Shown one piece after another: positions 33,131 to 35,095 of a stretch of 64,000 nucleotides of DNA. A program made the translations under genes and the position numbers. The DNA is from Escherichia coli (lineage in GTDB: Bacteria > Pseudomonadota > Gammaproteobacteria > Enterobacterales > Enterobacteriaceae), in the NCBI RefSeq assembly GCF_003334355.1, contig NZ_QOWP01000004.1. One strand, written 5' to 3'. The notes under the pieces were generated by a model. It saw only the letters and a list, made by a program, of their open reading frames with translations. It did not search any database and had not been told where the DNA came from. Position 1 is the stretch's first letter. The number at the start of each line of letters is the position of its first letter.

Positions 33131-35095
33131 TCAGGCGGCGGTGTTCGCCATACGTTGTTCGCGGTTTATCGCCTGCAAGGCGGAGACATCAACAATCAGT
33201 GCCACGCTGCCGTCGCCAAGAATGGTCGCAGCAGAAATGCCGGGGACTTTGCGATAGTTACTTTCAAGGTTTTTAACTACAACCTGATGTTGACCAATTA
33301 ATTGATCCACCAGCAAGGCGTAGCGGCGACCGCCACTTTGTAAGATCACCACAATTCCTTGGGTAGCTTCGGTTTTCGCGCCCGCGACGTTGAACACTTT
33401 CCACAGTTCGACGATGGGCAGATATTCACCCCGCACTTCCAGCACCCGCTCGCCGCCGGCCAGTGGATGGAGATCGGCTTCACGGGGTTGCAGTGATTCC
33501 ATAACAGCATTCAGCGGCAGAATGAAAACTTCATCCGCAACGCGTACGGACATGCCGTCGAGGATGGCCAGCGTCAGCGGCAGTAAAATGCGGATCGTAG
33601 TGCCAGTACCCTGCTTCGACTGGATTTCAACATGACCGCCCATCTCCTGGATATTACGTTTAACGACGTCCATGCCGACGCCGCGCCCGGAGACGTCGGT
33701 GACCTGCTCTGCCGTGGAGAAGCCTGGTGCAAATATCAGCATTGCAACTTCGTCGTCGCTCATGTTTTCGCTGACAGTCAAACCTTGCGAGGCCGCTTTT
33801 GCCAGAATTCGCTCACGGTTTAGCCCCGCCCCATCGTCGGTCACTTCAATGCAAATGTTGCCGCCCTGATGTTCGGCAGACAGAATTAAATTTCCGACGC
33901 TGTTTTTACCTGCGGCGAGCCGTTTTTCTGGCAGTTCAATACCGTGATCGAGGCTATTGCGTACCAGGTGGGTCAGCGGGTCGATAATGCGTTCTATCAG
34001 GCTTTTGTCGAGTTCAGTAGAACTGCCCACCAGCGTCAGTTCTACCTGCTTGCCGAGTTTTCCCGCCAGATCACGCACCAGCCGGGGATAGCGACTAAAA
34101 ACATATTCCATCGGCATCATGCGAATCGACATCACTGATTCCTGCAAATCACGGGCGTTACGTTGTAACTGCCCCATGCTGGTTATCAAATCACCATGAT
34201 TAACCGGGTCCAGTTCGCTGGAACGCTGGGCAAGCATGGACTGGGTGATAACCAGCTCGCCGACGAGGTTAATTAATTGATCAACCTTTTCTACCGCTAC
34301 ACGGATGCTGGTGGATTCATTGCTGCGCGTCGTTTTTTCCCGCTCCACGCGGCCGGTTGGCGCTTGTTCGGCTGCCAGTTTAAGCACTGGTGGGGTGGAT
34401 ATTTTTGGCGAGACTTCTACTGTTTCAAAGGTAATCTGATCGGCTTCAATCACAAAACAGAGTACCGCTGTGATGTCATCTTCGGCGATGTCGCCCGGTA
34501 ATATTGCCGAGAGCGAATCCGCCCCTTTCACCACGTCAGTTAACGTTGTCAGATGTCCCAGTTCTTCTTCCAGCAGGTCGACTTCCCCGGCCTTCAGGCG
34601 CGAAAGGATAATTCGTCGCGGCGACTGACTGCGACTCTGCTCATCTTGCGGTTCACTTTTGGCAACCACACTTAATCGGGTCACTGCGGATGGCGTTTCG
34701 CCTTTCGCTTCTAATGCCAGTTGACGCAAGGCCTGGCAGATATAATCGAAGCTGGCGGCATCCGGCTCTTGCGACTGTTTATAAGCGTCGAGCTGTTCTT
34801 GCATGATGTCCTTCGTTTCCAAAAACAGATTGATAATGTCGGTGTTGAGTTGCATCTCACCTCGTCTGGCTTCATCGAGCAGGTTTTCCATCAGATGCGT
34901 GGTTTCCTGCAAAACGCTGAAGCCAAAAGTTCCTGCCCCTCCTTTGATCGAGTGGGCAGCCCGAAAGATGGCATTCAATTGTTCGGCATCTGGCGCTTCC
35001 GGCTGCAAAACCAGCAAATGCTGCTCCATGTCAGCCAACAGTTCGTCCGCTTCATCAAAAAATGTCTGATAAAAATCGCTTATATCCATGCTCAC
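33131..35095 (-). CDS. cheA: Chemotaxis histidine kinase CheA (CheA-L, 654 aa; internal CheA-S start at 34804)
   Basis: Frame 33131..35149; conserved GTG start giving [20 protein letters not shown]; phosphorylatable His in [10 protein letters not shown]; internal in-frame ATG (Met98, plus 34802-34804) corresponds to the known CheA-S start. Confidence 0.93.

Follow-up and report, generated by a model that had tools for sequence, protein, structure and literature searches.

The start region of cheA in the window, a stretch of 64,000 nucleotides of Escherichia coli DNA, is very probably explained by a tandem-start arrangement: the long form of the kinase, CheA-L, is initiated at a GTG codon, the short form, CheA-S, at the in-frame ATG of codon 98 (Met98), and the extension of the open reading frame upstream of the GTG has arisen by chance. 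The gene is the E. coli chemotaxis kinase gene of the textbooks, with its two known starts, and as such it is already known. All features considered here lie on the minus strand; their coordinates are given in Table 1.

Table 1. Features of the motB–cheA region of the window
Feature	Position	Strand	Remarks and evidence
motB CDS	35100..36026	-	Stop codon TGA 35102–35100; list of open reading frames, NCBIfam, annotation
cheA CDS (CheA-L)	33131..35095	-	654 aa and stop; open reading frame, translation, RefSeq boundaries, profiles
Longest-ORF extension	35096..35149	-	18 codons; TTG 35149–35147, in-frame GTG 35134–35132; judged untranslated as CheA
SD sequence GAGGTGA of CheA-L	35100..35106	-	Sequence, energy of the duplex with the 16S 3' tail
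Start of CheA-L, GTG	35093..35095	-	Annotated start; SD -11.6 kcal/mol; codon 1 across lineages
Met3 ATG, possible secondary CheA-L initiation codon	35087..35089	-	Same SD sequence as the GTG, 13-nt spacing
His48 codon CAC	34952..34954	-	Read from sequence; within the Pfam Hpt match (8–100); in CheA-L only
Probable initiation region of CheA-S, codons 88–97	34805..34834	-	Lowest synonymous entropy; holds AAGGA (34813–34809)
Start of CheA-S, Met98 ATG	34802..34804	-	CheA-S of 557 aa, CDS 33131–34804; sequence, conservation, literature

The minus strand of the window carries the operon motA-motB-cheA-cheW, and the RefSeq annotation of E. coli genomes gives the gene order flhD-flhC-motA-motB-cheA-cheW-tar. 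A 1001-bp query spanning the motB–cheA junction was found in 5379 of 5426 complete E. coli genomes, and several chromosomes are 100% identical to it. In three E. coli genomes annotated by RefSeq/PGAP, the start of cheA is exactly the GTG at 35095–35093, and motB ends 4 nt earlier (locus positions 2906 and 2901 in the annotated genomes correspond to 35095 and 35100 in the window). The stop codon of cheA, at 33133–33131, closes a frame of 654 codons counted from this GTG.

The encoded protein scores 1344.8 bits against the NCBIfam equivalog NF007835 (cut-off 793), hence it belongs to this family, the enteric CheA of class F7; the profile match begins at residue 3. The Pfam domains are Hpt (residues 8–100), CheY-binding (161–223), H-kinase_dim (261–324), HATPase_c (372–508) and CheW (514–640), that is, the five-domain architecture P1 (Hpt), P2 (CheY-binding), P3 (dimerisation), P4 (HATPase_c) and P5 (CheW-like) is present in the CheA of the window. 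The phospho-accepting histidine of P1 is His48, within the motif AHSIKGG, the established autophosphorylation site of CheA. This histidine occupies position 48 only if residues are counted from the GTG, in agreement with the numbering used in the literature. The N-terminal 140 amino acids match the E. coli and Salmonella P1 structures 6s1k, 2lp4, 8c5v and 1i5n, and the PDB entries for CheA also number residues from the GTG.

For the comparison, a cross-species scan with one genome per species and the coding motif FYQTFF[D/E]EA yielded at least 120 loci, 64 of which are assigned to the Enterobacterales by the titles of their records; two MAGs were added to this group on the basis of similarity. 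Loci of other lineages among those listed number 55 and come mostly from the Burkholderiales. All loci were thus chosen by the conserved N-terminal motif, and no Salmonella locus is among the matches listed. The comparisons of Met98 and of codon entropy involve 60 Enterobacterales and 51 non-Enterobacterales loci among those listed. The SD energy is that of pairing to the 16S 3' tail, the background being formed by 190 NTG triplets in motA–cheA (mean -4.4 kcal/mol), and the combined start score is the sum of the SD pairing and a crude term for the opening of the mRNA.

The junction reads, on the minus strand, ...CCG AGG TGA CAGC GTG AGC ATG GAT ATA AGC GAT TTT..., and the part from the GTG at 35095–35093 onwards is translated as (f)M-S-M-D-I-S-D-F. 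The original prediction had placed the start of cheA at this GTG, with the N-terminus MSMDISDF, and both the sequence and the RefSeq annotation agree with it. The SD sequence GAGGTGA is composed of the last nucleotide of the penultimate MotB codon (CCG), the final codon AGG (Arg) and the TGA stop codon. Its pairing energy of -11.6 kcal/mol places the GTG in the top 3% of the 190 background triplets, and the spacing from GAGG to the GTG is 7 nt. The ribosome-binding site is therefore strong when compared with those of two in-frame codons further upstream, the TTG at 35149 (-3.3 kcal/mol) and the GTG at 35134 (-6.8 kcal/mol). With an opening cost of 11.5 kcal/mol, the combined score of the GTG is -0.1; this codon and the ATG of codon 3 (Met3; -3.1) are the best ones by this measure. 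Among the matches listed, codon 1 is GTG in 53 of the 64 Enterobacterales loci, and the codon in the same position is ATG in 39 of the 55 loci from other lineages, mostly the Burkholderiales.

The annotation, the SD sequence, the stop codons and the lack of conservation upstream, and the periodicity characteristic of the motB frame support the GTG, and not the upstream TTG, as the functional, annotated start of CheA-L. Both cheA starts were reportedly located by N-terminal sequencing by Kofoid and Parkinson in 1991. Our literature search for statements on the GTG start of cheA returned nothing useful, and no cheA entry was found in the supplements of the Ribo-RET (bioRxiv 520783), TetRP (PMC4909307) and TRAINSPOTTER (PMC13245402) studies or of the Salmonella proteoform study (PMC11005335).

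Met3 itself is an in-frame candidate that was absent from the original prediction. It is served by the same SD sequence as the GTG, with the same energy, and CheA-L could be initiated wholly or partly at this ATG (first nucleotide at 35089), the protein then beginning with MDISDF and the GTG being kept for other reasons. As an initiation codon, ATG is inherently superior to GTG, the surroundings of Met3 need slightly less energy to open (8.5 vs. 11.5 kcal/mol), and the NCBIfam model of CheA starts at this very residue. Moreover, codon 3 is ATG in all 64 Enterobacterales loci among the matches listed, as compared to 53 with the GTG at codon 1. In Photorhabdus, Xenorhabdus and Morganella, where codon 1 of cheA is GTA, AAC or similar, and in the second cheA paralogs, Met3 is the sole available start among the matches listed, and in all of these the SD sequence is kept at a spacing of 10–13 nt (the loci noted for Met3 are L005, L020, L042, L071, L080, L095 and L105). 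With the conservation of Met3 exceeding that of the GTG, and some genera having no other start, the comparative data are no proof of exclusive use of the GTG.

On the other hand, Met3 is situated 13 nt from GAGG, as opposed to 7 nt for the GTG, and the optimum SD spacing is about 5–9 nt. The GTG is retained in most of the listed Enterobacterales loci (53/64). Codon 2, lying between the two candidates, changes mostly synonymously among the matches listed (AGC to AGT in four loci, and one Thr), as expected of coding sequence. In the Burkholderiales, the ATG at codon 1 is accompanied by leucine at position 3 (39 of the 55 listed loci from other lineages), which points to position 1 as the ancestral start. 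The RefSeq annotation and the PDB numbering also count from the GTG. Taken together, the SD spacing, the changes in codon 2 and the presence of ATG as codon 1 of the outgroup make the GTG the probable main start of CheA-L in E. coli. Initiation of CheA-L wholly or partly at Met3 is quite improbable as an explanation of the locus, and Met3 is unlikely to contribute appreciably to CheA-L initiation.

The annotated start differs from that of the longest open reading frame, which, according to the original prediction, adds 18 residues upstream of MSMDISDF. This is indeed the case: the frame spans 33131..35149 and starts with the TTG at 35149, the initiator being read as M. The GTG at 35134, which the prediction did not mention, is a further in-frame candidate, 13 codons upstream of the GTG at 35095. 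Were CheA-L to begin at one of these codons, the annotation would be 13–18 residues too short. The upstream frame is open for 25 codons, and both TTG and GTG are legitimate bacterial starts; chance alone would place about 1.2 NTG codons in this stretch, and two are observed. However, the SD energy of the TTG is equalled or bettered by 63% of the background triplets, that of the GTG at 35134 is weak and within the background, and the combined scores of both are poor (8.1 and 6.6, respectively). Apart from E. coli, a single Citrobacter is the only bacterium with the upstream TTG among the matches listed. In-frame stop codons interrupt the 18-codon extension in 24 of the 64 listed Enterobacterales loci, in some of the listed loci directly before the GTG, and only 12 of the 64 have an in-frame NTG between codon 1 and the nearest upstream stop. 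Further, the numbers under which His48 and Met98 appear in the literature are obtained if counting begins at the GTG at 35095, and not at either upstream codon.

The extension overlaps, in another frame, the last 16 sense codons of motB and its stop codon. MotB scores 413.9 bits against the NCBIfam equivalog NF006548 (cut-off 277), and since the profile covers only residues 1–277 of 308, the tail of the protein is variable. In the 35 listed Enterobacterales loci with a 4-nt spacer between the genes, the 54 nt ahead of the motB stop codon have an entropy of 1.16 bits at the first position of the motB codons, 0.94 bits at the second and 1.37 bits at the third. The peak of variability at motB position 3, which is position 2 of the cheA frame, is a coding signature of the motB frame and not of the cheA frame, and the substitution pattern in the extension thus tracks motB. 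Given this pattern and the comparison of the TTG and stop codons, the extension is best seen as a chance open frame over the variable MotB tail, and we judge that it is not translated as a part of CheA. A start of CheA-L at the TTG or at the GTG at 35134 is extremely improbable. The longest-ORF rule would misannotate cheA by 18 codons, so the value of this result is mainly that of a quality check.

The original prediction had also described the motB stop codon and the cheA start as tightly packed, and suggested translational coupling. The packing is as described: TGA is followed by a 4-nt spacer (CAGC) and then by the GTG. Among the matches listed, the 4-nt spacer occurs in 35 of the 64 Enterobacterales loci, and in all 35 MotB ends with AGG followed by TGA (the junctions of loci L006–L122). 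At the other end of motB, it overlaps motA by 4 nt (36023–36026). The anatomy is that of a coupled pair, with the upstream stop codon a few nucleotides from the downstream start, and the SD sequence of cheA inside the motB reading frame. From the overlap of the SD sequence with the motB stop, the 4-nt spacer, the conserved arrangement and the overlap of motA and motB, we infer that motB and cheA are likely to be translationally coupled, which is reasonable given the conserved anatomy. Coupled pairs of chemotaxis genes are cheR-cheB, cheB-cheY, cheY-cheZ and cheA-cheW (Lovdok et al. 2009, PMC2716512). The motB-cheA pair resembles them in that the genes share one mRNA, the downstream SD sequence lies within the upstream reading frame, and the stop and start codons are a few nucleotides apart. 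It differs in that it does not belong to the pairs tested in PMC2716512, where motB is not mentioned, the case for coupling here being an anatomical one. The final AGG of MotB is a rare arginine codon with a dual use, in coding and in the SD sequence (35100–35106).

Two alternative start codons of cheA, producing CheA-L and CheA-S, are described in the literature (PMC2716512; PMC12350097; PMC1447658). In CheA-S the phosphorylation site is missing, and this form binds CheZ or localises it (PMC1447658; PMC2644175). According to the part of PMC2644175 that cites Sanatinia et al. 1995, CheA(98-655) is CheA-S, and CheA with the M98I substitution does not express CheA-S. In the window, the ATG at 34804–34802 is codon 98 counted from the GTG, in frame and downstream of His48, exactly where the original prediction had placed it. 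A protein starting here has lost residues 1–97, that is, nearly all of the Hpt match (8–100) together with His48, so the claim that the short form lacks part of P1 holds. The identification of Met98 as the CheA-S start agrees both with the M98I phenotype, as given in that part of PMC2644175, and with the invariance and constraint seen in the Enterobacterales only.

Indeed, codon 98 is ATG in 60 of 60 listed Enterobacterales loci, the second paralogs included, and the same position is a leucine codon in 51 of 51 listed non-Enterobacterales loci. The start of CheA-S is therefore conserved throughout the listed Enterobacterales. The invariance of Met98 could be partly structural. Within the first 137 codons, synonymous entropy with a correction for each amino acid is lowest over the ten codons preceding Met98, 88–97, in the 60 listed Enterobacterales loci (mean residual -0.44). 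Permutation of columns, which handles phylogeny common to the columns and not every codon-context effect, yields p = 0.0002 for this global minimum. In the 51 listed non-Enterobacterales loci the synonymous constraint at these codons is absent (mean 0.007, p = 0.53). As both the position of the constraint and the clade match, the constraint at the nucleotide level coincides with the internal start. The favoured synonymous codons in this region are A/U-rich and conserved.

The SD sequence of Met98 is AAGGA, situated 4 nt before the ATG. Its pairing energy is -5.4 kcal/mol, rank 8 of the 18 in-frame ATGs. It requires Lys95 to be encoded by AAG, and 58 of the 60 listed Enterobacterales relatives use AAA; hence this SD sequence is lineage-specific and not conserved. 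The opening cost at Met98, 8.8 kcal/mol, is among the lowest, and its combined score, 3.4, is the best of the internal in-frame ATGs with the exception of ATG649, located 41 nt before the start of cheW. We considered SD strength as an explanation of Met98 and rejected it, because of the rank, the lack of conservation and the stronger SD-like sequence at Met81. A pairing energy of this size does not fully account for the efficiency of Met98 as a start. The constraint on codons 88–97 in the Enterobacterales favours A/U-rich codons and not an SD sequence, and it may mark a conserved element, for initiation without an SD sequence or for regulation, that sets the ratio of CheA-S to CheA-L. The joint proposition that CheA-L is a mixture of proteins with two N-termini, Met3 sharing the SD sequence of the GTG, and/or that codons 88–97 act as an SD-independent element, appears unlikely.

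Met81 (34853–34855) is another in-frame ATG. It is preceded by GAGGTGAG, an SD-like motif with an energy of -9.2 kcal/mol, stronger than that of Met98; the motif is not conserved, and the predicted opening cost is high, at 15.7 kcal/mol. Met81 is not a known start and may be an internal SD-like site.

Second copies of cheA were observed in Yersinia artesiana, Enterobacter sp. BIGb0383, Pluralibacter gergoviae and Rahnella bruchi (L017, L019, L051 and L082, respectively). These paralogs have another upstream junction and a codon other than GTG at position 1, and they keep Met98 and its context LFLESKDIMQ.

That the short form comes from an internal promoter with a separate transcript, or from proteolysis of CheA-L, instead of initiation at Met98, is scarcely credible: the SD sequence of Met98 is weak and nothing else in the analysis favours such an origin, while a scan for sigma-70-like promoters (sigma-28 being outside its range) had no match on the coding strand between 34600 and 37200, the synonymous constraint directly upstream of the ATG is seen only in the clade with Met98 among the listed loci, and proteolysis would not predict the loss of CheA-S in the M98I mutant, as reported in the part of PMC2644175 citing Sanatinia et al. 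1995.

RNA structure does not set the starts apart. The RNA fold is no more stable than that of dinucleotide shuffles, with MFE z-scores of 0.03 at the CheA-L start and -0.22 at the CheA-S start. Five inverted-repeat pairs were found, and neither start is flanked by any of them; there is no Rfam match at E ≤ 1 between 33000 and 37200. A 9-bp hairpin, CUGUUUUUG / CAAGAACAG (codons 90–92 and 99–101), brackets the CheA-S start in E. coli; it was rejected as a conserved structure, as the 60 listed relatives have no compensatory change and several breaks of pairs, for example, ten U-U oppositions at pair 4.

Under the tandem-start arrangement, ribosomes on the motA-motB-cheA-cheW mRNA would initiate CheA-L at the GTG at 35095 using GAGGTGA. 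As this SD sequence is built from the last codons of MotB and the TGA stop, a ribosome finishing motB, or a free 30S subunit, would sit 4–7 nt ahead of this GTG. CheA-S would arise from another initiation event, independent of the first, at the in-frame ATG of Met98 (34804); it would retain domains P2–P5 and be devoid of residues 1–97 with His48, and hence would be incapable of autophosphorylation. According to the literature, CheA-S helps to localise or activate the phosphatase CheZ. The upstream 18 codons would be an accident, the tail of motB happening to be open in the cheA frame.

The locus and architecture are those of the tandem starts of cheA in E. coli K-12 and Salmonella, with a long form of 654 aa and a short form of 557 aa. 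Nothing differs from that system, and at the DNA level the identity with sequenced E. coli genomes is 100%. The biology was established in 1980–1995: two in-frame starts, with the short form lacking the phosphorylation site and interacting with CheZ. The tandem starts and the two forms, CheA-L and CheA-S, are said to have been described by Smith and Parkinson in 1980, Kofoid and Parkinson in 1991, and Sanatinia and co-authors in 1995. The arrangement is similar to that of infB (IF2 alpha/beta/gamma), clpB, ssaQ and ccmM, where an internal in-frame start yields an isoform that is shortened at the N-terminus and has a role of its own (PMC11005335; PMC12350097). Unlike in those cases, whose proteins are unrelated to CheA, the truncation of cheA removes the phosphotransfer site and not a targeting or assembly domain. 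Annotation with one product per gene hides CheA-S. The present analysis adds small supporting increments, namely, the restriction of Met98 to one clade, the constraint on codons 88–97, the SD sequence formed by AGG and TGA, and the AAGGA specific to E. coli.

Some observations concern individual isolates and the neighbouring genes. In E. coli ET245, cheA is split about 50 codons from its beginning by an insertion of the IS3 family (L003, 3406–4860). E. coli 720632 matches the query with 100% identity, and its flhD has a frameshift according to the annotation (L001, 49–383). The two cases represent natural loss of motility or chemotaxis among E. coli isolates. Finally, a strong terminator-like hairpin (10 bp, followed by a T-run) is situated between flhC and motA, at 36986–37011 on the minus strand, consistent with a terminator of the flhDC operon preceding the promoter region of motA.
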